Made by a program: the position numbers and the translations under genes
DNA from: Chlamydiota bacterium
GTDB lineage: Bacteria; Chlamydiota; Chlamydiia; Chlamydiales; SM23-39
DNA length: 58,785 bases
Assembly: GCA_031423235.1 (NCBI GenBank)
Contig: JANPFC010000148.1
Location: 1-58,785 of the forward strand
Direction of reading: 5' to 3'
Notes under the pieces: model-generated
Seen by the model: only the letters and a program-made list of their open reading frames with translations
Told to the model about the DNA's origin: nothing
Database searches by the model: none
In this document: positions 269 through 21,337 of the stretch, piece by piece
How positions within the stretch are numbered: the first letter of the stretch is position 1
How the letters are laid out: each line of letters starts with the position of its first letter

Positions 269-1450
269 TTACTTTGGAATTGCGTCGAGATTGTAGAGAT
301 AGGTCTCTGGGAAGAATTTAGAGAGGATCTTCACTGCGTTCTCGCCGTTCTGAGCAAGCGCGTTTGCCGAATAGAGGCAAAGTCCCACTCCGTGTCCTTG
401 GCCAAAGCCTGTAAACACAACCGCATCATCCTTGAGCGAGACTGTGAAGTCTGAGCTCTGGAGGTGGGTTGCGCCGAGGCGGCCTTGCAGGGTGAGGAAA
501 TCGAGATCGATGCTCTGCGCGCCGTCTTTCACACGAACTCCATAGACTTTAGAGGATGTCTTATCAACAAAGAGCTCAAAGGCACTGATTTGACTTACGT
601 TGAGAAGATGGGAGAGGGTCTTCTTGCCAATCTGATAGGTCCATTTGCTTTTTTGACGAGAGAGTGCTGCGTGAGGAGCTTCTACCCCTTTCTCTGGAGC
701 AAATGTGTCTTTGCGGAAAATTTGCGAATAGGGTGCTGTTTTTCCTGCGCTGTTCTCTGTCCAGGCTGTCGCAAAGGGGAGGTCTCTGCCATTATCATTA
801 TGGAGAAGGATGAGGTGGCGGGTGCTCTCAACTGCGCGATCGATGGATGAGTTGGAAACTACAAGGGCTGATCCCTGATAGTTGAGCTCAGAGGCGCTGA
901 CATGCCAGTAGCTGTTCGGGTTCGCACGGGTCGCATGGTAGTAGGCGTCGGTGCGGGCAAGTATGGCAAGCGCTGACATCACTTCTGATTCAAGGGGAGC
1001 GAGGAATTGCGAGGTGAGTTTGGACTTCACAAACGACTCAATATCGATATCGTTCACAATATTGATCGATTCGCCAACGCCGTATATCGCAATGGAACCT
1101 GCATATTGGATCCCGTTGATGAAGATCGATGTTTCCGATGAGCGGGGTTTGATGTAGATCTGGTGGATGCCAGGGAACTCTTCGCCCCATTTAAGTCCAT
1201 TGTCCAGGGCGTGGATCATGAATCTCTTGCCGAGCAGACCGGAGGAGACTCGCGATCCGTCGTGAGGATTGAATATATAGTAGGGCCCTTTCACTTCGAG
1301 TAGGACGCCTTCAGCATCCTTTTCGATGAGAATTTGAATGTTGCGGGGCGCCATCGGTTCGGCTATCCGCTCATAAGAGGTATAATCATCAGCTTGAACG
1401 GTAGATAAAGCGCTGCAGAGAATGGCTGCGGCAAAAAGGGAAGTTTTCAT
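269..1450 (-). CDS. spoIID: SpoIID/LytB-domain protein (chlamydial peptidoglycan glycan-processing homolog)
   Basis: Signal peptide; VNDIDIESFVK, ALAILART, G.GHGVGLC..A..LA..G.....IL..FFP motifs; adjacent to ruvB as in chlamydiae. Confidence 0.85.
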   Translation of the reverse strand: MKTSLFAAAILCSALSTVQADDYTSYERIAEPMAPRNIQILIEKDAEGVLLEVKGPYYIFNPHDGSRVSSGLLGKRFMIHALDNGLKWGEEFPGIHQIYIKPRSSETSIFINGIQYAGSIAIYGVGESINIVNDIDIESFVKSKLTSQFLAPLESEVMSALAILARTDAYYHATRANPNSYWHVSASELNYQGSALVVSNSSIDRAVESTRHLILLHNDNGRDLPFATAWTENSAGKTAPYSQIFRKDTFAPEKGVEAPHAALSRQKSKWTYQIGKKTLSHLLNVSQISAFELFVDKTSSKVYGVRVKDGAQSIDLDFLTLQGRLGATHLQSSDFTVSLKDDAVVFTGFGQGHGVGLCLYSANALAQNGENAVKILSKFFPETYLYNLDAIPK

Positions 1451-2463
1451 TGCATTGACTCCGGTATTTTTTTTGGCCTTCGGCCAAGATGTTCATAGGC
1501 AGCAGCTGTGGCTTCGCGCCCCCGCGGGGTTCGCTTTATCATCCCTTGCAAAATGAGAAAGGGCTCATACACTTCTTCTATTGTATGAGATTCTTCGCCG
1601 CATGCAGCTGCCAAATTATTGAGGCCTACTGGGCCCCCGTCGTGATGATCAATAATAACACTTAGGATTTTTTTGTCCATTTCATCTAATCCACGCTCAT
1701 CAATTGCTAACATTTCTAGCGCTTTGTGAGCCGTAGTTTGATCAATGTGTTTCACTTTTTGAATCTGTGCAAAGTCGCGTACCCAGCGGAGGAGATTATT
1801 TGCGATTCGAGGTGTGCCGCGTGAACGTTTGGCGATTTCTAATGAGGCGTCTTGAATGAGATTAACACCTAAAAGTCTTCCTGATCTTTCGACGATTTGT
1901 TTCAGTGTGGCTGGATCGTAGTAGTCCAGACGGAGTGAGATGAGGAAGCGGGAACGCATCGGTGCGCTGAGAAGTCCTGACCGAGTTGTGGCGCCGACGA
2001 GCGTAAATGGATTGAGTTTGACTTGCACCGTGCGGGCGTTGGGGCCTGAGTCGATCATGAGATCAAGCGAAAAATCTTCCATTGCCGAGTAGAGATATTC
2101 TTCAGCAGATCTAGGCATGCGGTGGATCTCATCTATAAAGAGGACATCGCCGAGTTTTAAGTTTGTGAGTATGCCTGCAAGATCGCCTGGTTTTTCAATG
2201 GATGGACCCGATGTGACGCTGAGCTGAGTTCCCATCGATTTTGCCATAATATGGGCAAGCGTTGTTTTGCCAAGTCCAGGAGGACCGGAAAAGAGGCAGT
2301 GGCCGAGCGCTTCTTTGCGGCTCTTTGCAGCTTCGATGAAAATTTCAAGGCGTGCAAGGACCGCTTCTTGGCCAATAAACTCGCTGAGTTGCTGCGGCCT
2401 CAAGGGGCTTTCAAATGGTGCGTCGGGCTTGGCCCAAGAGGACTCGATAAAAGCTTCGCTCAT
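1447..2463 (-). CDS. ruvB: Holliday junction helicase RuvB
   Basis: LRP..L.EFIGQ, GPPGLGKTTLA, FIDEIHR, RGTPRIAN, RTPRGR. Confidence 0.98.
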   Translation of the reverse strand: MSEAFIESSWAKPDAPFESPLRPQQLSEFIGQEAVLARLEIFIEAAKSRKEALGHCLFSGPPGLGKTTLAHIMAKSMGTQLSVTSGPSIEKPGDLAGILTNLKLGDVLFIDEIHRMPRSAEEYLYSAMEDFSLDLMIDSGPNARTVQVKLNPFTLVGATTRSGLLSAPMRSRFLISLRLDYYDPATLKQIVERSGRLLGVNLIQDASLEIAKRSRGTPRIANNLLRWVRDFAQIQKVKHIDQTTAHKALEMLAIDERGLDEMDKKILSVIIDHHDGGPVGLNNLAAACGEESHTIEEVYEPFLILQGMIKRTPRGREATAAAYEHLGRRPKKIPESMQ

Positions 2464-2537
2464 ATATCAGAAAACTGTAGCAAGAAAACCATTTGAAAAG
2501 CTATACATTACAAAGGCCCCCCACAACAATTGGTATT

Positions 2538-3104
2538 ATGTCACTACGTTCAGACAAATGGATCCGCCGCATGGCGATCGAACAAAAAATGATAGAACCT
2601 TTCGCCGACCGTCAAGTACGCGAAGAGAAAGGGGAGCGATTGGTCAGTTTTGGCCTTTCGAGCTACGGATATGACCTCAGAGTTGCCGAAGAATTTAAAG
2701 TCTTCACCAACGTCCACAACACAATCGTCGATCCGAAAAATTTCAACGACAATGCCTTTGTCGATATCCGTGGAAAGACTTGCATTATCCCTCCGAACTC
2801 TTTTGCTTTGGCAAGAAGCGTCGAGTATTTCCGTATCCCGCGTAATATCTTAACCTTGTGCATCGGAAAATCAACTTATGCCAGATGTGGTATCATCGTG
2901 AACGTCACCCCCTTCGAACCTGAATGGGAGGGTTATGTTACCCTTGAAATCTCAAATACAACTCCTTTGCCTGCAAAAATTTATGCAGGGGAAGGGCTGG
3001 CGCAGGTTCTCTTTTTCATGGCAGAAGAGGTTTGTGAAGTTTCCTACGCAGATAGGAAGGGGAAATATATGAAGCAGATGGAAATCACCTACCCGTGTAT
3101 TTAA
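2538..3104 (+). CDS. dcd: dCTP deaminase
   Basis: [35 protein letters not shown]; start taken at MSLRSDKW. Confidence 0.97.
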
Positions 3105-3412: not shown

Positions 3413-4632
3413 TTTTCTTTCTCGTTCTCCTTATCGTCCTTTCGGCCTTTCTATCAGGTTCCGAAACGGCTCTCTTCTCCATTTCGCCGCTGACGGTCAA
3501 ATCATACCGAAATACGACCTCTCCGCGGCTCAATTTAATCGGCTATCTCATGGAACGGCCGAGAGAAGTTCTCGTTACGATCATGATTCTGAATATTTTA
3601 GCTAACGTGCTGATTCAGAATACGGTATCTACGATCTTCGACGCTTACGAGAGCTGGGGGTTGAAAATCGGAGTTCCTCTCGCGTTGACACTCATTTTTG
3701 GCGAGGTTTTGCCTAAGTCGCTTGCCCTTCCGAATCATAACGCGGTCGCTTACTGGACGGCGCCTTATATACGCTTTGCGGCGAGTATGCTCCGTCCGAT
3801 TCGGGGCCCGCTTACGAAAATGACCAGCATTATTTCCCGTTTTCTTTTTTTCTTTTTGCGCGAAGAAAAGGAGATCTCTGCCGATGAACTGAGGCACGTT
3901 TTAAAAACCTCTGAAGAGAGGGGCATTCTGATGCCGATCGAGTCTGAACTAATTGGGGGGACTCTTGATCTGCAGCATTCTCATGTTAAAGAGCATATGC
4001 GTCCTCGGGAAGAGATCCTATCCTATGATGTCCAAGAGCCCCTTTCTCAGCTTTTGCATCTTTTTATCGAGAAGGAAATTACGCGGATCCCTATTTGCGA
4101 TGGGGATTTGGAAAATTTGAAGGGGATTTTGACGGCGCGCCAATTTTTCTTTCAGCAAAACCAGATCAAAAGCGGCAAGGATCTCCTCTCTATTTTGAAG
4201 AAGCCCTACTATGTTCCTGAGTCGACCCGCGCATGGACCGCTTTACGCAATTTACGCGAAAGGGGCGTCAGCCTTGCAATGGTAGTCGATGAATATGGGT
4301 CTATTTCAGGGCTGATCACGCAGGAAGATCTAGCTGAGGCTGTGATCGGAGAGATTGTCGATGCTAGAGATACAAAAAGCTTGTACACCCGCTCTAGCGA
4401 GGATGTGATTATCGCAAGCGGCCGGATGGAGCTTGGGGAATTTGAGGAGCTCTTTGGAATTGCCCTCAAGTCGAAAGAAAATATTGTGACCTTAGGCGGC
4501 TGGCTGATTGAGCAATTGGGAGATATCCCAACTACTGGCACAAAGTACGCGACTGATGAATTCCTATTCTATGTCCTTGCTGCCGAACCGAATCGGATCC
4601 GCAGGATCTATGTGCGGAGGCTTAAGAAATGA
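3409..4632 (+). CDS. CNNM/DUF21-CBS-CorC hemolysin-family membrane protein
   Basis: SAFLSGSETALFS, FGEVLPKSLA, VVDEYGSISGLITQED, C-terminal TLGGWL CorC domain. Confidence 0.93.
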   Translation: MIFFLVLLIVLSAFLSGSETALFSISPLTVKSYRNTTSPRLNLIGYLMERPREVLVTIMILNILANVLIQNTVSTIFDAYESWGLKIGVPLALTLIFGEVLPKSLALPNHNAVAYWTAPYIRFAASMLRPIRGPLTKMTSIISRFLFFFLREEKEISADELRHVLKTSEERGILMPIESELIGGTLDLQHSHVKEHMRPREEILSYDVQEPLSQLLHLFIEKEITRIPICDGDLENLKGILTARQFFFQQNQIKSGKDLLSILKKPYYVPESTRAWTALRNLRERGVSLAMVVDEYGSISGLITQEDLAEAVIGEIVDARDTKSLYTRSSEDVIIASGRMELGEFEELFGIALKSKENIVTLGGWLIEQLGDIPTTGTKYATDEFLFYVLAAEPNRIRRIYVRRLKK

Positions 4633-12621: not shown

Positions 12622-13472
12622 ATACCCGTTGTAAAGCCACCAAAAAGATAGAGATTGATCACACTCACCGCATTGAATGACCCGTGTAAAACCATAGGTG
12701 CTAAGATAGAGCCCCGTTTCTCATAAAGAAAACCGAGAAAGAGAGAGAGGATAAAGAGCGGAGGAATGATCGATATATTACCGAGCGCTTGTCCTGCAGA
12801 GTAGTGAAAGAGGGAAAAGCAAACGGATGTGATTAGTATGGCTTGGCGTGAGCCTATGTGCTGCCGGATATAGGTTTGCAAAAAACCCCGAAAGAGGGTT
12901 TCTTCAATGAGGGGAGCGAGGAAAATAATCGAGATCACCGCCATTCCAAAGTAGAGAGGGCTTTCAAAGGTCGATTTAAGAAATTTAACGGCAATTTGAT
13001 CGGGCAGATGGGTCGCATCAAAGAGTTTTAAGACGATGAATTCAAGGGCTTGGCTTAAAAAGAGGACGAGGGGAAAGGCTAGTACCCACGCGTAAAGGGC
13101 AGACCAAATGTCTTCAGAAAATGAGTGGTCTGTTGTAGTTCTGCATATAATCCCCTTTCTCACTTTTTCTGGAAGCGCTCTTAAGTAGAAAGCGAGAAGG
13201 ATAAAGATAAGGAATGAGACTCCAAAGTTTAGCCAATTTGAATAGGCCATGTAATTGGCCATGACCTGCTTTCTAAAGAGGGCAACGACTATTCCGGTGG
13301 CGAAATAGCTGACAATAAAGTAGATCGCAAACGCCCCTATGACGTGCAAGAGGCGGATCGGCAATATCCATTCAAAGTTCGGGAATTGGAAGAATCCTCT
13401 CTTCGCGCCCATGAAGAGCAGCAGTAGCGCAAGGATCCCGAACGCAATGGTTGCCAGAGCGTCTGAACTCAT
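12618..13472 (-). CDS. CPBP-family intramembrane metalloprotease (CT254-like)
   Basis: APLIEETLFRG, FSLFH, H..FN motifs; multiple TM segments. Confidence 0.9.
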   Translation of the reverse strand: MSSDALATIAFGILALLLLFMGAKRGFFQFPNFEWILPIRLLHVIGAFAIYFIVSYFATGIVVALFRKQVMANYMAYSNWLNFGVSFLIFILLAFYLRALPEKVRKGIICRTTTDHSFSEDIWSALYAWVLAFPLVLFLSQALEFIVLKLFDATHLPDQIAVKFLKSTFESPLYFGMAVISIIFLAPLIEETLFRGFLQTYIRQHIGSRQAILITSVCFSLFHYSAGQALGNISIIPPLFILSLFLGFLYEKRGSILAPMVLHGSFNAVSVINLYLFGGFTTGI

Positions 13473-14101
13473 CTACTTTTTGCCAATAAAATGTAGTCTG
13501 TGATCCGAGTCGCCACTTCTTGAACCAGTTGGGCATGAGCAATACCCATAGGCGATTTTCTAAATGCTTCGGTACCCCAAACTTCGACCGAATAATCGGT
13601 TGGAATGAGAGTTTTCGGAACAAAGTAGCTGTCTCGAATCATCTCTTGAAGAACAATTTTCGGTGCTGCTCCTCTTAAGTCGATCACGCGGAGTCTGATT
13701 CCCATGTTCAGGTTGCTCGATGCTTCCTGTAGCGAGACCCCTTTTGCTTTAACTGGGGCAAATTCGTGCTCTACAAGTTCTAGAAAAGCGACAAATTCTT
13801 CCCCTTGGAATTCCCGTTTCATCCAAGCGAGATCAGTACCAAATGGGTTTTCAGTGAATGGGGATTCTTGTTGCGAATGGACATAAACTTGTCCTGTTCC
13901 GGCAACGAGGTTCATCACACCTTGGGTGAGTTCTTCTGAAAGACTCCAAGATGCATCAAAGGATGTGGTGTCCAGCATGGATGCGACCGCAACAGACGGT
14001 TTCGCTCTTCCATCATCATGGAAACGGCTCATTTGATCGTTTTGATTGTGGCTGCAGCTTGCAGCTGCAAGGGCAATTAGAAAAGCTGGGATACGGCGCA
14101 T
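13469..14101 (-). CDS. Chlamydial CT253-family lipoprotein
   Basis: Lipobox AAASC after MRRIPAFLIAL; WSLSEELT, ELVEH, R+RVIDLR motifs; next to the CT254-like gene. Confidence 0.75.
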   Translation of the reverse strand: MRRIPAFLIALAAASCSHNQNDQMSRFHDDGRAKPSVAVASMLDTTSFDASWSLSEELTQGVMNLVAGTGQVYVHSQQESPFTENPFGTDLAWMKREFQGEEFVAFLELVEHEFAPVKAKGVSLQEASSNLNMGIRLRVIDLRGAAPKIVLQEMIRDSYFVPKTLIPTDYSVEVWGTEAFRKSPMGIAHAQLVQEVATRITDYILLAKSR

Positions 14102-14149
14102 GATCTTCCTCCGGAAATACAAATCTCAAATATACATAGGAAGAAGAAA

Positions 14150-16039
14150 TTAGGAAAGATGAATTGCTAATAGCGAGGAATAGGGGGCAAGTTCGGTCGT
14201 AGATACGGTTAGGCCATCGGTGTTGCAGAATAGCCAATCTTCAGATGTATTGACGACGGTTTTCCAATTGCCTGGCGGAAGGGTGAGGGTGGCCGGCTTG
14301 AAGTCGGCGTTGAAGGCGATGTAGAGGGAAGGGGGGCCTTTCATCATGTAGGCGATGAGGCGGGATTCGGGATCCCAGTTGGTAAACCATTCGACTTCCG
14401 CATCGGTTAGAAATTGAGTGCGGCGCAATTGCGGGTGTTTGTGGCGGAACGCGATGAGGTTGCTGGTAAATTGGAGGATTTTTTGGTTTTGCTTATCCCA
14501 AAGAACCCAATTGATCTCATTGTCTTGAACGTACGGGTTGTTGTTCCCATTACGGGTATGGCCAATTTCATCGCCCATGAGGAGCATCGGGATCCCTTGC
14601 GAAATAAACAGGGCGAGGAGAAAGTTGCGCATTTGTCTTTCGCGTAGCGCGTTGATCGCCGGGTCGTCTGTTGGACCTTCATGGCCGCAATTCCAACTGT
14701 CGTTTTGATTATTCCCGTCGAGGTTATTTTCGCCATTCGCATAGTTGTGCTTGTTTTGGTAGGTGACGAGATCGCGGAGGGTAAAACCGTCATGGGCAGT
14801 GATAAAATTGATGCTGCTTAAGGGGGTTTTTGAGGCGCTGTAGATCATTTCGCTGCCGCAAATGACGTTTGCAAATATTCCTACTTTGGCATCGGTCCCT
14901 TTCAGGAATCTCCGGACGATGTCTCGATACCTGCCGTTCCATTCGGACCAGGGGCCCCATTTCGGGAAGTATCCGAGTTGATAAAGCCCTGTCGCATCCC
15001 AGGCTTCGGCTATGAGTTTGACTTTTGCGATAATAGGGTCTCTTTTTATTGCTGTTAGAATGGGGGGGTGATCAATTGGGTGGCCATTTTGATCTCTTGT
15101 GAGTATTGAGGTGAGATCAAACCTAAATCCATCGATGTGCATCTCTTGAATCCAGTAGTGGAGGCTATCCAGAATGAGCTTTTGAACTACTGGATGATTG
15201 GCGTTGACTGTGTTTCCGCATCCGGTGAAATTGCGGTATTTTCCACTTTTATCGACCATGTAATAGACCGAATTGTCAATCCCTCTGAAATTGGCGTAAT
15301 ATTCGAGGACGTCTTCCTCCCCAGTATGGTTATAAACTACGTCCAAAATTACCTCGATTCCATGCTTGTGGAGCTCCCTTACGAGGGTTTTGAACTCGTT
15401 GATAGGATCGCTGGCTCCATACCAGCCCATTGGAGCGAAGAAATGGAGGGGGTTATATCCCCAGTAGTTGACGAGTCTTTGTTTTGTAATTGGGTCGAAG
15501 TCTTTGCAATGGGTATGGTCAAAGCCAAAAATAGGCATGAGTTCGACGGCGTTGACCCCGAGTTTTTTTAGGTAGGGGATCTTTTCGATGATCCCAAGAT
15601 ATGTGCCTGGATGGGCAACGCCGCTGGAAGGGTGCTTGGTGAAGCCGCGGACGTGCATTTCGTAGATGATGAGGTCGGAACGGGGGATTTTCGGCGGCTG
15701 GTCATTTTGCCAGTCAAATGGGGCAGGCAGAGAAGCGATGGCCCGTTCGGCGCGGATCATCTTCGCGTAAGGATCGATCAGCCAAACATTCGGGTTGTAG
15801 AGGAGCTCTTTAGGCCCTTCGCACCGGTACGCATATTCTAATCCATGAGGGAGATCGGTAATCCCTATATGCCAAATGTCTCCGGTACGATAGAGTGGGA
15901 TCTCTTTTACGGGATTGCCCTTTGAATCAAAGAGTCCCAATGTCACTTTTGTAGCGTGGGAAGAGAAGAGAGCGAAATTCGCGATGGAGCCCTGAATAGA
16001 AAAGCCTAATGGATCTGGGGTTCCTTGATTGAGGTACAT
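14150..16039 (-). CDS. glgX: Glycogen debranching enzyme / isoamylase (GH13)
   Basis: YEMHVRGFT, NYWGY, DVVYNHT, DGFRFDL, IAEAWD, FITAHDGFTL. Confidence 0.95.
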   Translation of the reverse strand: MYLNQGTPDPLGFSIQGSIANFALFSSHATKVTLGLFDSKGNPVKEIPLYRTGDIWHIGITDLPHGLEYAYRCEGPKELLYNPNVWLIDPYAKMIRAERAIASLPAPFDWQNDQPPKIPRSDLIIYEMHVRGFTKHPSSGVAHPGTYLGIIEKIPYLKKLGVNAVELMPIFGFDHTHCKDFDPITKQRLVNYWGYNPLHFFAPMGWYGASDPINEFKTLVRELHKHGIEVILDVVYNHTGEEDVLEYYANFRGIDNSVYYMVDKSGKYRNFTGCGNTVNANHPVVQKLILDSLHYWIQEMHIDGFRFDLTSILTRDQNGHPIDHPPILTAIKRDPIIAKVKLIAEAWDATGLYQLGYFPKWGPWSEWNGRYRDIVRRFLKGTDAKVGIFANVICGSEMIYSASKTPLSSINFITAHDGFTLRDLVTYQNKHNYANGENNLDGNNQNDSWNCGHEGPTDDPAINALRERQMRNFLLALFISQGIPMLLMGDEIGHTRNGNNNPYVQDNEINWVLWDKQNQKILQFTSNLIAFRHKHPQLRRTQFLTDAEVEWFTNWDPESRLIAYMMKGPPSLYIAFNADFKPATLTLPPGNWKTVVNTSEDWLFCNTDGLTVSTTELAPYSSLLAIHLS

Positions 16040-16267
16040 GATTCAAAAAATAAGTTTACGTCTACTCTTTCTTTAACATTGAATTTAAGTTTTGTTTCAA
16101 CTAAAATATTATCAGCAAAAATAACGTCTAAGCGTCAAAGAGACCGATTTTTAGAGGGATATTGAGATTTCCCTTGCAGCCAAGGGTTGCAAAGATTTAT
16201 AAAAGTTTCTGCTCTTTTTACGTTTTGATCATTTGAACTAAAAAACAATCCAGTCAGGAGGAACACA

Positions 16268-16783
16268 ATGTCCTATGAAAACGCCAGAGCGAACTTAAGA
16301 GAGTTCGGCAAGGAGCTAAACCTGGAAGGTTTAGATTTCGACGAGAACAACACCTGTATTCTCGGAATCGATAACACCTTCTCTCTCCATATTACTTATG
16401 AGCCGAATTCAGATCGTCTCTACCTATATTCTCCAATTCTGGATGGTCTTCCAAAAGACGACAGGATCCGCTTAAAACTGTTCGAGCGTTTGCTCGAGGG
16501 TTCTATGCTCGGCGGCCAGATGGCTGGCGGCGGTATTGGCGTTGCACCAAAAGAAGAGTTGATCCTCATGCATTGCGTGATTGACATGGGCCTTGGCGTA
16601 GATGCTGCAGCTCTCCGTAGATTCGCACCGCTTTTCGTAGAAACAGTGGAAAAATGGCGCGAGATTGTGAATAAGGTTTTGGCTGGCGAAGATCCAGGCC
16701 CATTCCAATTCCCAGTACCTCCACCGGATCAAGCAGCCACTTTCGGCGGCTCAAAACCGGGCGAGCGCTACATCAAGATTTAA
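16268..16783 (+). CDS. slc1: Class I type III secretion chaperone Slc1 (CT043-like, CesT family)
   Basis: FDENNTCIL..FSLHITYE..DRLYLY.P+LDGLP, LLEGSMLGGQMAGGG, LILMHC; RBS AGGAGG; next to glgX as in Chlamydia. Confidence 0.88.
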   Translation: MSYENARANLREFGKELNLEGLDFDENNTCILGIDNTFSLHITYEPNSDRLYLYSPILDGLPKDDRIRLKLFERLLEGSMLGGQMAGGGIGVAPKEELILMHCVIDMGLGVDAAALRRFAPLFVETVEKWREIVNKVLAGEDPGPFQFPVPPPDQAATFGGSKPGERYIKI

Positions 16784-18152
16784 GCTCCTCTACCGCCCCC
16801 GCTTCCGGGGGCTTTCCTTTGATTTGTACTAGTTCTTTATAAAGCCACAGCGCCGAACAACGTTTCCGATAGTCTATCTGAAGCATCCGGTGGATCAGCG
16901 GCTTGATTGTCTCAGGGATTCCCGATTTCTCGATTTCCCGTTCGATTTCGTCCATAGTTAGTTTCTCGATTCTCGATTCAATTTGCCTATCGTTTTGGAA
17001 GTTCATAAGCGTTCCGGTTTCCCGATGGAATAGGGAGAATAGAATCATGCCAAAGGACCAGATGTCTGCCTCTTCCGTAGAATGCTTCACCCATTCTCCG
17101 GTTAACTTATGGTCCCAGAAAGAGGCGAGTTTTTCCGGGGCGATATAGGCAAGAGTTCCTGTCCGATTTTCGATGAAATCCCGTTGGTTTTGCCTGCAGG
17201 CTGCGCCGAGATCTCCGATAACCGCTTTGATTTTTCGGCCCGCAATCCCTTTGGCGTGAACTGAAATGAGTATATTTGAGGGTTTTAGATCCCTATGAAT
17301 GATTCCCAAGGAGTGTAAATTGAGGAGTCCGAGAGCCAGTTCCGTAGCGGTTTGGATTTTCTCTTGAAGGGTGAACTGCCATTTGTTGTCGAAGACCCGT
17401 TGCAGATCTCCGCAGTTTAAAAACTCGGTGAGGATATAAAACTTCCCCTCCTGCTCTAATGAAGCTTCAATCTGAAGAAGGCCAGATAATCCTCTCAGTT
17501 CATTTAGGAGTTTCACTTCATTTGCAAGAAGTCTCCAATCCATTTCCTCCAAATATTCACGCCTGGAAATGGCAGCCGCGTAAATTTGCGCGTTCTGGAT
17601 TTTAAGGGCCAACTTCACCCGTTTAATTGAGCCGCTGCCAACGCATTTATCCTTTCTCTTCGTGAATTTGCTAAATAGTATAAATGATTGTCCTTGGCCT
17701 GCAATCAGAGTGCGGATGGCCTGCTTTTTTATACACTTTAGTTCGGCTTGCTGCAGACACCTATTTCCAAGGTGGACCATTCTAGCTACATCATTCTCAG
17801 TTACCTGATCTAAAGTACATCGGTGGACATGTGAATGGAGTTTCTGTATTAAATAGGCTGGAAAGTGTTGGAGGACAGTTTGTATTTCAGCGGCAGTTTC
17901 CATAAAACATCTGAAAATATCTTCATTCAAGACCCAGATCTGCTTTTCGGCTTCATCTAAATAAAGAGTGATTTGCGTGTAGCGATTTTTTAAAAAGAAA
18001 CTGGGGGCCGATTTTCTCGCATGCGCCCAGTGATCGCTATCCTCAAATCCCCGAAATGCGATTTTGAAAAGGCTTGATTCTCCTGGAATTTCCTCTATTG
18101 AGGATGCGAACAGTTTTAAACGGGGGTAATGCAGGGCTGGGGCGACAGACAT
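16773..18152 (-). CDS. Eukaryotic-like Ser/Thr protein kinase with WNK-type lysine placement; candidate effector
   Basis: GSGSIKRV, HRDLKPSNIL, IGDLG, GTLAYIAPE, DIWSFG. Confidence 0.9.
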   Translation of the reverse strand: MSVAPALHYPRLKLFASSIEEIPGESSLFKIAFRGFEDSDHWAHARKSAPSFFLKNRYTQITLYLDEAEKQIWVLNEDIFRCFMETAAEIQTVLQHFPAYLIQKLHSHVHRCTLDQVTENDVARMVHLGNRCLQQAELKCIKKQAIRTLIAGQGQSFILFSKFTKRKDKCVGSGSIKRVKLALKIQNAQIYAAAISRREYLEEMDWRLLANEVKLLNELRGLSGLLQIEASLEQEGKFYILTEFLNCGDLQRVFDNKWQFTLQEKIQTATELALGLLNLHSLGIIHRDLKPSNILISVHAKGIAGRKIKAVIGDLGAACRQNQRDFIENRTGTLAYIAPEKLASFWDHKLTGEWVKHSTEEADIWSFGMILFSLFHRETGTLMNFQNDRQIESRIEKLTMDEIEREIEKSGIPETIKPLIHRMLQIDYRKRCSALWLYKELVQIKGKPPEAGAVEELKS

Positions 18153-18174: not shown

Positions 18175-19401
18175 TTATTGAATGGTGAATTCTAGTGAAT
18201 CGATCTCTTTTTCTTCTACGGCTTTCTGAATTTGTTTGATGCTGCTCATGACTGTGGAGTGGTCTCTTCCGAAGATATCTCCAATTTTCTGATAGGCGAT
18301 TTTTAGTCTTTCTCTACAGAGATACATGGCGATCTGTCTAGGAAGAGCAACTCCTCGCATTTGCGATTTGCCAAGGATATCTTCGCTTGTGATCCCATAT
18401 TTAGCTGCGACGCTTTTGATGATTCTCTCCGGAGTGAGGGCGTTTTCAGCCTCTTTTTCCAAGAGGTCTTTCAAGAGTCTCTCTCCGATTAAGGTAGTGA
18501 TTGGGCCACCTTTGGAGCGGAGGGCTAGAGCTTGGAGCGCTTGAATTGGGTTTTTGGGGAATTTTTCCACAAGCCATTTGAATATTTCCTCGCCTAGATC
18601 CATTCGCCAGAGAGCGGCCTTTTTTTTCAAAATGGGGAGTGGGCTGGTCTTTCCAACCTCTAGTGAGATTCCCCATTCAAAACGGCTGATAAGACGAGGC
18701 TCCACTTCATGCAGCTGGGGAGGGGGGACATTGGCGCTGATGAGGATGAGTCTGCCGATTGTATGGAGGGTGTTGAATGTGTGGAAAAACTCTTCCTGAG
18801 TAGCCGTTTTGCGAGAGAATATATTTATGTCGTCGATGATGAGGGCGTCGATATCACGGTAGATTTTTCTAAATTCTTGCATTTGGCCGAGGCGGATCGC
18901 TTGCACTACGTGTTCGGTAAAGGTTTCGGCACGAACAAAGAAGACTCTTTTGCCGCTTTTTTCTAAAGCAATGGCAGCTCCCATCAGAAGGTGTGTTTTA
19001 CCTGCTCCTTTGGGTCCATAGAGGTATATTGGGTTAAAAGGGGAGGCTTCAGATAATAACCGGTAGACAACGAGGTTCGGTTCCTCGGGGACGAAGTTCT
19101 CTAGAGTCATCTCTGGGTCGATCGGATCAGGATTGAAGGATAGGGCTCGAGGCTCTTCTTTTTTTACAATGCCAGATTTATCTGTAACCAGATGGACTTT
19201 AATGGGCCTTTGATTGTGATTGAGCAGCCCTTTTAAGCGGGGCCGCACATGTTCTTCAAACCAGCTGATTTGAAACGAGTCCCTAGCTTCAAGGTAGATG
19301 TTGCCCGCATCAAAACGGATGAGTCCAGGGACCCATTTTTTTACAACTTCAGGCCCCAATTCTTGGCTTAACTGCGACAAAAACTGTTGCCATTCATTCA
19401 C
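18175..19401 (-). CDS. dnaA: Chromosomal replication initiator DnaA (yidC-linked chlamydial copy)
   Basis: FNPIYLYG..G.GKTHL, TQEEFFHTFN, RLISRFEWG, RQIAMYLCR, GRDHSTV. Confidence 0.95.
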   Translation of the reverse strand: MNEWQQFLSQLSQELGPEVVKKWVPGLIRFDAGNIYLEARDSFQISWFEEHVRPRLKGLLNHNQRPIKVHLVTDKSGIVKKEEPRALSFNPDPIDPEMTLENFVPEEPNLVVYRLLSEASPFNPIYLYGPKGAGKTHLLMGAAIALEKSGKRVFFVRAETFTEHVVQAIRLGQMQEFRKIYRDIDALIIDDINIFSRKTATQEEFFHTFNTLHTIGRLILISANVPPPQLHEVEPRLISRFEWGISLEVGKTSPLPILKKKAALWRMDLGEEIFKWLVEKFPKNPIQALQALALRSKGGPITTLIGERLLKDLLEKEAENALTPERIIKSVAAKYGITSEDILGKSQMRGVALPRQIAMYLCRERLKIAYQKIGDIFGRDHSTVMSSIKQIQKAVEEKEIDSLEFTIQ

Positions 19402-19407
19402 AGAGCT

Positions 19408-21267
19408 TTACCCCTTTTTGGGTGCCGCATTCATTTTTTTCATCATCCACATTTGCTGGCCGATTCCAAGGAGAGTAGAGAGCATGAAGTAGATGTTAAG
19501 CCCTGATGGGAAGTTATAGAACATGACAGTGAAAAGGACCGCCATCATGTTGCCCATCATTTTTTGCTGCTTCTGGGTGTCGGAGAGCTTGCTAGGATCT
19601 TTTGGCAGTTTAGATGTGAACTTCTGCTGCAAAAACATCGTAATACCCATCAAGATGGGGAGAAGATGGAATTCGTTGCCAATGAACCATATTGGCTGTC
19701 CCCAGCTAAAAAGGAGGTCGGGGGCCGAGAGATCGTCGATCCAGCCTGGAATAAACACGGCGCCGCGCAATGGGAAGCTTGATTTAAGAAGGTAGAACAT
19801 ACCGATCAAAAAGGGCATTTGCAAGAGGACTGGGAAGCAGCCGGTGAGGGGATTGATTCCAGATTCGCGGTAGAGGTTCATCACTTCAGATTGAGCTTTG
19901 CGCGGATCTTTTTTATATTTATCTTGTACAGCCTTCACTTTGGGGGCGATTTCCTGCATCTTGATCGAAGAGCGGATAGACCAGTTGTTGAGCGGATACA
20001 TCATCGCTCTTAGCGCAATCGTAAGGAGAATAATCGACAGGGCCCACGAATGGGTTACCGCGTAGAAAAGCTCCATCAAGAGGAAGAGGAATTTTGCAAA
20101 TGGCTGCGATATGAAGGAGAACCAACCCTGGATGCTGAGGGCAGAGACGTAATCGGGGTTGTAGTTTTGGAGCGGGTCTTCATAGAGAGCATCGAGTTCT
20201 TTGAGGAGGGCGTTGTCGTAGGGTCCTGCAAAGATGCGGAAAGGGGTGATGCCGCTTTTGAGCGGTAGATAGGTGGCGTAGCCTGGATAGCTGGCGGCTG
20301 GATAGAGGTTGTAGCCTGGATCGATCAGGGTGAGGCGGGTAGGGATTGTCGCTCCGTCGATTTGAGCCGTTTTATAGCCAGCTCCAGTTGGTTCGAGCGG
20401 GTCCATGATGATGCCCAAAAAGCCGTTGCAGTTGCTGATCCAGTTTGGCGAAATATTTGAGGCTAGGATTGGCCCTTTTTTGGGTAAATCGATCGTGTCG
20501 ACATCGGAAACTTTGTTTTTTGTGACTTGGATGCGGAGTAGAGGGCTGTAGGAATTGCTGACAATCTCAGCGTCAGGGACGCCTGAGCTCAGCCATAGGC
20601 CTTGAGCATCTCCATCTACACGGATGTCCAAATTAAAGCAGTAGGGTCCGTTGCGAACTTCTGGAATGGTGTACGTTTTGGTGACCTGGGCGCCGCCTAC
20701 AACTCCCTGGAATTCGATCAGATTCTTTTCAAATCGGCTCATCCGAAAATTGACGTTCGCAATGTTTGGATCCTCTCCAACGATGTTCAAACTGTAGTAT
20801 TCTGGCGAGATCGATTTGCCATTGATGCCGCGGCGGAGGAGGGGGTAATAGCCGCCGAGTTTTCCTTCCGAGTGTTCGCCATCTGGAGTTGAGTAGGCAT
20901 GGAGCGGGAAGCGGGCGTTTTGCGGGGATGTTGCGAGGATTTCCCGGTCGAAGTCGATCTCTTTGACGTAGCTATTGGGATTGGAGTTTTTTAAAGGTAA
21001 GTTGATCTCGGCTAAGCTGCCGCCTCTAGAAGAGAAAACGAGCTGCTGATATTCGTTCTCCAGGACGTAGAATGTTTCGCCCTGAGAACTATTGCTAGCT
21101 TGAGCGATAAAGTTATTTGCTTTTTCGAGGGGAGCGGGAGGTATTTCATTCTGAACGACGACCTTCTTCTCTGCGGCTGGCTTTTCGCCATAGTAGTTGT
21201 AAAAGGTGTGTACGCCAAAAAAGGCTAGGCTGACACAAACCATGAAAAGAAGGGTACGTTTATCCAT
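19408..21267 (-). CDS. yidC: Membrane protein insertase YidC
   Basis: MDKRTLLF start, SIILLT, P..GCFPVLLQMP, WIDDLSAPD, FPSGLNIY. Confidence 0.95.
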   Translation of the reverse strand: MDKRTLLFMVCVSLAFFGVHTFYNYYGEKPAAEKKVVVQNEIPPAPLEKANNFIAQASNSSQGETFYVLENEYQQLVFSSRGGSLAEINLPLKNSNPNSYVKEIDFDREILATSPQNARFPLHAYSTPDGEHSEGKLGGYYPLLRRGINGKSISPEYYSLNIVGEDPNIANVNFRMSRFEKNLIEFQGVVGGAQVTKTYTIPEVRNGPYCFNLDIRVDGDAQGLWLSSGVPDAEIVSNSYSPLLRIQVTKNKVSDVDTIDLPKKGPILASNISPNWISNCNGFLGIIMDPLEPTGAGYKTAQIDGATIPTRLTLIDPGYNLYPAASYPGYATYLPLKSGITPFRIFAGPYDNALLKELDALYEDPLQNYNPDYVSALSIQGWFSFISQPFAKFLFLLMELFYAVTHSWALSIILLTIALRAMMYPLNNWSIRSSIKMQEIAPKVKAVQDKYKKDPRKAQSEVMNLYRESGINPLTGCFPVLLQMPFLIGMFYLLKSSFPLRGAVFIPGWIDDLSAPDLLFSWGQPIWFIGNEFHLLPILMGITMFLQQKFTSKLPKDPSKLSDTQKQQKMMGNMMAVLFTVMFYNFPSGLNIYFMLSTLLGIGQQMWMMKKMNAAPKKG

Positions 21268-21337
21268 GTAACTCTCGGGCTGATTAACTAGGGAAGGATA
21301 GCAAAAATTGGAAATTGAAGCAAACAAGTACGGAGAT

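Follow-up and report, generated by a model that had tools for sequence, protein, structure and literature searches.

A chlamydial protein kinase with its candidate ATP-anchoring lysine in the glycine-rich loop

Among protein kinases, the WNK family is the textbook exception, its catalytic lysine having moved to another strand. In WNK1 this residue, Lys233, presumably stands exactly where other kinases have the third loop glycine (GxGxxK), and the freed beta3 site, together with the leucine of the DLG motif, helps to bind chloride. Here we analyzed a 58,785-nucleotide stretch of DNA from a Chlamydiota bacterium (hereafter the window; GenBank assembly GCA_031423235.1, contig JANPFC010000148.1, positions 1 to 58,785), in which a protein kinase gene, P0001, abuts the gene of a type III secretion chaperone. 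The source genome amounts to 2.56 Mb in 148 contigs and is 96.9% complete. Judged from sequence comparison, the product of P0001 is likely to be an active kinase whose anchoring lysine has moved convergently to the glycine loop, and it would represent an accessory, fast-evolving, CAMK-like Ser/Thr kinase of an environmental chlamydia.

The portions of the WNK literature consulted assign the catalytic Lys233 of WNK1 to the glycine-rich loop or strand beta2, with a cysteine in strand beta3 (PMC5346417, PMC3415842, PMC12599244), and describe a chloride pocket made by the two leucines of the DLGL sequence, Leu369 and Leu371 (PMC5346417). The window kinase resembles WNK in lacking the beta3 lysine, in carrying a lysine in the glycine loop, in reading DLG for DFG and in keeping the alphaC glutamate. 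Among bacteria, one group of comparators consists of Hanks-type pseudokinases without the canonical lysine. The accessible part of a 2025 review covers seven such families (ActPs1-3, GLW, CP1, DYD and DLHK), for which other basic residues are discussed as compensation; none of the seven is chlamydial, and WNK appears there only as an analogy (PMC12599244). Unlike the window kinase, the seven are found in actinobacteria, proteobacteria, firmicutes and cyanobacteria and show arginine substitutions or degraded HRD and DFG motifs, and the same part of the review presents none with a glycine-loop lysine (PMC12599244).

A second group of comparators is formed by secreted effector kinases (the Legionella LegK family, NleH, SteC and YpkA), which are likewise eukaryote-like and come from intracellular or host-associated bacteria. 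The NCBIfam model of LegK1 matched the window kinase at E 4.5e-14 and 51.9 bits against a cut-off of 550, one of 11 NCBIfam kinase matches that all fell far under their cut-offs. The Legionella kinases differ in that, according to the excerpted text, the equivalent of Lys72 of PKA is kept in almost all of the novel families (PMC9758233). For chlamydiae, a pangenome paper mentions the pseudokinase Pkn5 and also CopN, described there as a serine/threonine protein kinase (PMC8242063). Our literature search, which did not extend to the kinase atlas behind PMC12599244, found no account of a WNK-type loop lysine in kinases of chlamydiae or of other bacteria, and the chlamydial family reported here is apparently undescribed.

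P0001 (16773..18152, minus strand, as for all features of the kinase below) is an uninterrupted open reading frame (ORF) encoding 459 amino acids. The protein begins with a disordered stretch (residues 1-14), continues with an N-terminal domain and the kinase domain, and closes with a short tail. Residues 168-435 matched positions 4-255 of the 263-position Pfam Pkinase profile (PF00069) with an E value of 4.9e-39 and 134.7 bits, the cut-off being 31.7, and the CAMK-like catalytic domain as a whole spans residues 160-445 (16818..17675). Motifs were checked by translating the exact window coordinates. The glycine loop reads GSGSIKRV (residues 172-179, 17616..17639), with Lys177 (codon 17622-17624) in place of the third loop glycine. 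The canonical beta3 (VAIK) lysine position, within QIYAAAISRR, is occupied by Ala194 (17571..17573), so that the kinase lacks the beta3 lysine of eukaryotic-type kinases. The remaining catalytic residues are all present: the alphaC glutamate Glu212 (17517..17519), the catalytic loop HRDLKPSN with Asp288 and Asn293 (residues 286-293, 17274..17297), the Mg-binding motif DLG with Asp314 (residues 314-316, 17205..17213), which is followed by Ala317, and the APE motif (residues 338-340, 17133..17141).

An earlier reading of the locus from its letters alone (the sequence-only reading) had described the beta3 strand as IYAAAIS without the VAIK lysine, the GSGSIKRV loop, the DLG motif, and an intact HRDLKPSN, alphaC glutamate and APE; translation of the coordinates bore out every one of these. 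HMMER alignment to the N-terminal kinase of RSK2 placed the YAMK lysine of RSK2 on Ala194 and its GQGSFG loop on GSGSIK, with the third glycine on Lys177. The alignment thus puts Ala194, and no lysine, at the beta3 position, and at the level of sequence the proposed relocation stands. These comparisons support Lys177 as the only candidate ATP-anchoring lysine, at a glycine-loop position of an otherwise intact kinase. In a near-identical strain, assembled independently from the metagenome of another study, the codons of Lys177 and Ala194 show no difference. Lys180 and Arg197 were considered as alternative anchors and rejected, because each is present, too, in beta3-lysine relatives such as P0141 and P0154, and neither covaries with loss of that lysine.

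The swap extends well beyond the window. Six close homologues, all metagenomic, share 40-64% BLASTP identity with the kinase; the matches that follow are far weaker and belong to eukaryotic RSK-type kinases (E 2.5e-25 at best). The seven close family members, aligned at 39-64% identity, have invariant G172, G174, K177, E212, H286-R-D288, N293, D314, G316 and APE, and their beta3 residue is Ala, Gly or Leu and never Lys, unlike the cysteine of WNK. In a 54-sequence alignment of the family, in which identities fall to about 21-25%, D288, N293 and D314 do not vary at all, and conservation reaches at least 90% for K177, E212, H286, K290 and G316.

An exhaustive search of representative sequences retrieved 29 proteins at E <=1e-30 and 1344 at E <=1e-10. 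Aligning 154 database proteins and 24 genome-locus ORFs to the family profile gave 327 domain rows, 145 of which, including some duplicates, have residues at both lysine columns. Among these 145, 69 carry only the loop lysine and 63 only the beta3 lysine; none carries both, 10 carry neither, two have a loop arginine and one has a beta3 arginine. Relatives with the loop lysine have Ala, Gly, Leu, Ser, Met or Thr at the beta3 position. DLG was read in 35 of 65 loop-lysine domains versus 6 of 62 canonical ones, an enrichment that parallels WNK.

At the level of genomes, the family profile built from the 54 sequences matched 186 of the 201 genomes searched from the order at E <=1e-25, a count that includes housekeeping kinases. 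Many chlamydial families are represented among the 30 best loci, which contributed 43 domain rows besides that of the window; 22 of these have the loop lysine and none is canonical, the other 21 being local alignments that stop short of the N-lobe and are not alignable there. As a base-rate control we used 80 generic bacterial kinase loci of unrelated phyla, kept from 567 fetched by degenerate HRDLKPSN/APE patterns. Of 81 domain rows in this control, 79 were canonical, two were gapped at the lysine columns, and no loop lysine occurred. Since none of the 79 alignable generic domains shows it, the loop-lysine arrangement appears specific to this kinase lineage, and on these alignments the swap is a trait of a large chlamydial kinase family.

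Several genomes have at least eight family matches, and family kinases also occur in tandem arrays. One locus (L022, G072:C10) has four ORFs between positions 4578 and 9331 on the minus strand, and further arrays were found in G086 (L019), G177:C20, and G202:C45 and C15. The arrays and the high match numbers indicate lineage-specific expansions. Two further kinases of note lie elsewhere in the genome of the window. The first (L004, G000:C119, ORF 1324-2697, plus strand, 457 amino acids) has an HGDIK catalytic loop, VAIM for VAIK, and QGTYKTARK in the region of the glycine loop; it probably lacks the beta3 lysine as well, and its loop alignment is ambiguous. The second (L006, G000:C101:7616-8866, minus strand) is a paralogue, a 520-amino-acid frame that aligns with family-profile positions 8-427, N-terminal domain included. 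Its motifs are degenerate (MHGDLTADN and DLD), and it is likely a pseudokinase copy.

A quick IQ-TREE tree was calculated from 102 distinct domains, after rows shorter than 220 residues, rows with a gap at either lysine column and duplicates had been dropped. It splits with full Shimodaira-Hasegawa-like approximate likelihood ratio support (SH-aLRT 100) into a clade of 68 rows, of which 57 have the loop lysine, eight are canonical and three have other residues, and a clade of 34 rows, comprising 30 canonical rows, three others and a single loop-lysine row on a long branch. Both lysine states coexist inside one strongly supported clade. The window kinase falls within a clade of 11 rows that all carry the loop lysine (support 95).

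To place the family among kinases of known structure, three PDB searches were run, one with the whole protein (126 matches at E <=1e-10), one with only its N-lobe and one with the family profile (2783 matches), and the best 60 of each were inspected. No WNK chain occurred among the best 60 matches of any of the three. The best 60 of the profile's 2783 matches all belong to the CAMK group, with Rad53 at 2.8e-53 and with CDPK, CaMKII, PhK, MELK, STK33, SIK3 and AMPK. An AlphaFold2 model of the kinase had a predicted local distance difference test score (pLDDT) of 94.1 and a predicted template modelling score (pTM) of 0.90. The best Foldseek matches of this model were CaMKII, MELK, PhK, ULK1, DCLK1 and RSK2, with no WNK among the matches listed. 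In VIA structural re-ranking all kinases tied at Z 25-27, a tie that carries no information on WNK, although none stood among the 50 rows listed. The ESM Atlas returned generic kinase clusters only, the nearest being PDIK1L-like. A Pfam scan of the protein found the kinase domain only and no WNK-associated or sensor domain.

The kinase family is CAMK-like in both sequence and fold similarity. CAMK-group kinases (CaMKII, CDPK, Rad53, PhK and MELK) and the N-terminal kinase of RSK2 are its best matches over the whole catalytic domain, at 20-27% identity, but in them the beta3 lysine is retained, the loop reads GxGxxG, and the family's N-terminal domain is missing. Several features set the protein apart from WNK: the window kinase is bacterial, it has canonical-lysine relatives in its own clade, and its nearest listed matches are of the CAMK group. 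In D314-L315-G316-A317, moreover, the first leucine of the WNK1-type chloride pocket is present and the second is replaced by Ala317. Because WNK is not among the listed top sequence, profile or fold matches, its likeness to this family is best regarded as convergent, a view that is well supported but not proven, its basis being lists of top matches rather than a joint tree with WNK. The sequence-only reading had offered a WNK-type relocation that was either convergent or acquired; the first alternative fits these results, and acquisition from WNK does not, the top matches being CAMK-group and never WNK.

The arrangement suggests a simple mechanism. Strands beta2 and beta3 adjoin in the N-lobe sheet. 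The anchoring lysine would have left strand beta3, where Ala194 now stands, for the third-glycine position of the loop on the neighboring beta2 (Lys177), from which its long side chain, placed where that loop ends, could reach the space normally filled by the beta3 lysine. By WNK precedent and by its conservation, Lys177 may bind the alpha and beta phosphates of ATP and pair with Glu212. For phosphotransfer itself, Asp288, Asn293 and Asp314 would serve in the usual way, and the enzyme, once secreted, would act on host proteins.

Downstream, P0001 converges on the chaperone gene (16268..16783, plus strand, 171 amino acids), and the 3' ends of the two overlap by 11 bp; the sequence-only reading gave the same overlap, and the shared bases are 16773..16783. 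The chaperone matched Pfam CesT (PF05932; E 2.5e-27, residues 9-131) and, in the PDB, ShcA (7.9e-5) and STM2138 (5.6e-4), and NCBIfam gave no match for it. Of the 200 genomes of the order that were scored, 193 have it, as do 151 of the 153 high-quality ones, mostly in single copy. Its best 120 database relatives are 77-96% identical to it, under source names of the type 'CesT family type III secretion system chaperone [Chlamydiia/Chlamydiales ...]'. A glgX-like debranching enzyme gene (14150..16039, minus strand) is its conserved neighbor: the two adjoin in the window, in the genus and in a small-genome family (f35; 1.0-1.2 Mb, GC about 0.38-0.41), whose Slc1-type proteins differ from the window chaperone in sharing only 54-57% identity with it. 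Slc1 of C. trachomatis, which we take to be CT043 in a CT042/CT043 gene order, is similarly a CesT-family protein, near-universal in the order and encoded beside glgX. The window protein is probably this core chaperone of the order and an orthologue of Slc1, a name that none of the tools assigned.

The position next to slc1 is not fixed for the kinase. Of 29 loci in other genomes, 18 have dnaA beyond slc1 and no more than 1.5 kb away, often with a 4-bp overlap, and none has a kinase at the slc1 junction. Of five further genomes of the same genus, four have dnaA directly against slc1 without the kinase, and in the fifth the contig ends at slc1. In one kinase-less genome of the genus (L163, G054:C2), 215 bp separate the end of slc1 (2016) from the end of dnaA (2231). 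The kinase stands between dnaA and slc1 in four genomes (G000, G083, G077 and G099), and these four syntenic orthologues are the only ones with slc1 as neighbor among the 47 kinase loci examined (190,831 bp). By this comparison of gene orders, dnaA is the ancestral convergent neighbor of slc1.

The kinase also diverges faster than the genes around it. Syntenic kinases are 39% and 28% identical, versus 57-95% for the neighbors and 95% and 91% for the chaperone. Compared with the near-identical strain, the kinase has 12 single-nucleotide polymorphisms (SNPs), seven of them non-synonymous, and slc1 has two, both synonymous. The kinase gene is accessory and fast-evolving. Contigs of a metatranscriptome from a bioreactor study matched slc1 (16231-16627) with one difference; they come from a near-identical strain, and DNA carry-over is possible. 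None of them fell on the kinase, and contigs of this kind cannot show absence.

Because the kinase is expanded, fast-evolving, accessory and eukaryote-like and has no Pfam sensor domain, we lean slightly towards its secretion into the host. Several observations weigh against an active, convergent and secreted loop-lysine kinase. On the side of the lysine, the well-supported branches of the tree force only about three switches. The absence of rows with both lysines, striking as it is, does not amount to 145 independent observations, and a covariation test that takes relatedness into account retained three independent pairs on well-supported branches (eight on all branches; sign test p about 0.5), too few for it to have power. 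The 10 of 145 domains without either lysine mean that some relatives may be inactive, and 'convergent' rests on WNK not being among the best listed matches and not on phylogeny. On the side of secretion, the kinase gene shares its strand with dnaA (18175..19401, minus) and lies 22 bp behind it, and nothing resembling a promoter was found between the two.

If the family is nonetheless what it seems to be, it would be of more than local interest. As a second case, independent of WNK and much larger, it would mean that relocation of the lysine is repeatable. Natural intermediates would be on offer as well, since the canonical and the relocated lysine occur within a single clade. Motif rules flag such proteins as 'dead', and a class of probable host-manipulating enzymes of chlamydiae may be misjudged. 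The results also point to an expanded, fast-evolving and unstudied kinase family outside Chlamydiaceae.

Among the alternatives, the one that survives best is an internal signalling kinase that is co-transcribed with yidC-dnaA and not directed at the host; it overlaps with the case in which the kinase is simply not secreted, and we consider it possible, though the less likely outcome. The gene order just described would suit it, as would the canonical kinases that the same genome carries at two loci (L001 and L002), and chlamydiae do have housekeeping Hanks-type kinases. Against it, the gene comes and goes within one genus, diverges extremely relative to its neighbors and belongs to a family with lineage-specific paralogue expansions; there is also no Pfam sensor domain, and the best relatives are eukaryotic CAMK-type kinases.

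Somewhat less probable is that the kinase is a type III secreted effector that depends on Slc1, with the adjacency of the two genes reflecting a chaperone-cargo pair. The sequence-only reading had suggested a possibly secreted effector abutting slc1 and had pointed to the 11-bp overlap. The overlap was rejected as a sign of coupling, because slc1 overlaps or abuts dnaA in the same manner in loci without the kinase. In favor of a pair, the convergent arrangement persists in four genomes of the genus, the family resembles effector families in its expansion and fast evolution, and Slc1 engages several effectors in C. trachomatis, as described in the consulted sections of two papers (PMC3930595, PMC3576375). 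The N-terminus of the kinase would also be compatible with a secretion signal, with a disordered stretch of 8-14 residues (AlphaFold2 pLDDT under 50 for residues 1-8) and no acidic residue before Glu20. Yet dnaA converges on slc1 without any kinase in most of the other-genome loci and in four of the five further same-genus genomes, which leaves the argument from adjacency unsupported; the other 43 kinase loci have no slc1 neighbor; and in C. trachomatis slc1 is unlinked from its effector genes, according to the section of the paper concerned (PMC3930595). Residues 15-135 are predicted to be compact and packed on the kinase domain, rather than forming an extended chaperone-binding stretch. Most simply, the adjacency of kinase and slc1 is an accident of gene position, and it is weak evidence for chaperoning.

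We consider it improbable that loss of the beta3 lysine inactivated the enzyme and left a pseudokinase, either ATP-binding or a non-catalytic scaffold, in which Lys177 would be structural or incidental. The absence of the canonical lysine, the 10 related domains with neither lysine, the degenerate paralogue L006 in the same genome and the fast evolution of the gene would all agree with it, and bacterial pseudokinase families without the beta3 lysine are known, as the part of the review cited above documents (PMC12599244). Against this, the other catalytic residues are kept across the 54 sequences in spite of their low identities, and the loop lysine never occurs together with the beta3 lysine, two relatives having a loop arginine instead. 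The loop-lysine kinase is still better described as a probable enzyme.

More speculative, and very unlikely as a whole, is a scenario in which the expanded kinases are all host-directed and all carry the loop lysine, and in which relocation would have made them sensitive to an ion or small ligand, so that they are switched on only in the host cytosol. It is built by analogy on the chloride binding of WNK at the freed beta3 site and the DLG leucine. As part of this scenario, the family may preserve steps of the migration of a catalytic residue, because canonical and relocated members coexist in one clade. Descent of the kinase domain from a host eukaryotic WNK, with an inherited lysine position, has only a very small chance of being right: the shared GxGxxK loop, the missing beta3 lysine, DLG, GEGSFKT-like loops in relatives and the life of chlamydiae inside eukaryotes favor it, but no WNK is in the best-60 PDB lists or the listed Foldseek rows where CAMK-group kinases are on top, canonical-lysine members sit inside the same clade, no second Pfam domain accompanies the kinase, and DLG is followed by Ala and not by the Leu given for WNK1 in the part of the source consulted (PMC5346417).

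The N-terminal domain (residues 15-135, 17748..18110, minus strand) comprises five strands and several helices and appears family-specific. It is confidently folded both in the full model and when modelled alone (pLDDT 88.4). No known fold was found for it: the best VIA Z score was 2.9, with none of 48161 chains at Z>=5, the best Foldseek E value was 0.078, and Pfam gave no match. Weak matches were mostly to kinase N-lobes, and a degenerate N-lobe was considered, but the scores (Z 2.1-2.9, Foldseek E >=0.078) are too weak for it. A query with this domain over the 201 genomes of the order, a sample that contains no other genome of the genus, recovered only its own genome.

The C-terminal tail carries the sequence PPEAGA (residues about 447-452), for which relatives have PPETGA or PPELGG. 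On the opposite strand, its codons contain a terminator-like hairpin directly after the slc1 stop (16795..16812, plus strand; GCCCCCG-CTTC-CGGGGGC), with seven G-C pairs and a T-rich tail. Of the 11 loci folded, most have a hairpin behind slc1, kinase-less loci included. Because it is present without the kinase as well, the PPEAGA motif may have been imposed on the peptide by the slc1 terminator, as a constraint of RNA structure. In G083 the same hairpin-within-motif design is seen with PPELGG, and kinase-less genomes have a textbook terminator after slc1.

Among the remaining genes near the kinase, a 639-codon ORF (19408-21327, minus strand) appears YidC-like from its sequence. On the far side of the glgX-like gene, a DUF7499 protein (13469-14122, minus strand; E 1.6e-53) occurs at the same position in two genomes of the genus with 74-75% identity, and its N-terminus resembles a lipoprotein signal by eye. 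In one genome of the f35 family (L169, G252:C1), glgX beside the chaperone is split into overlapping ORFs (0-782 and 641-1459, minus strand), which may reflect a frameshift or a pseudogene.

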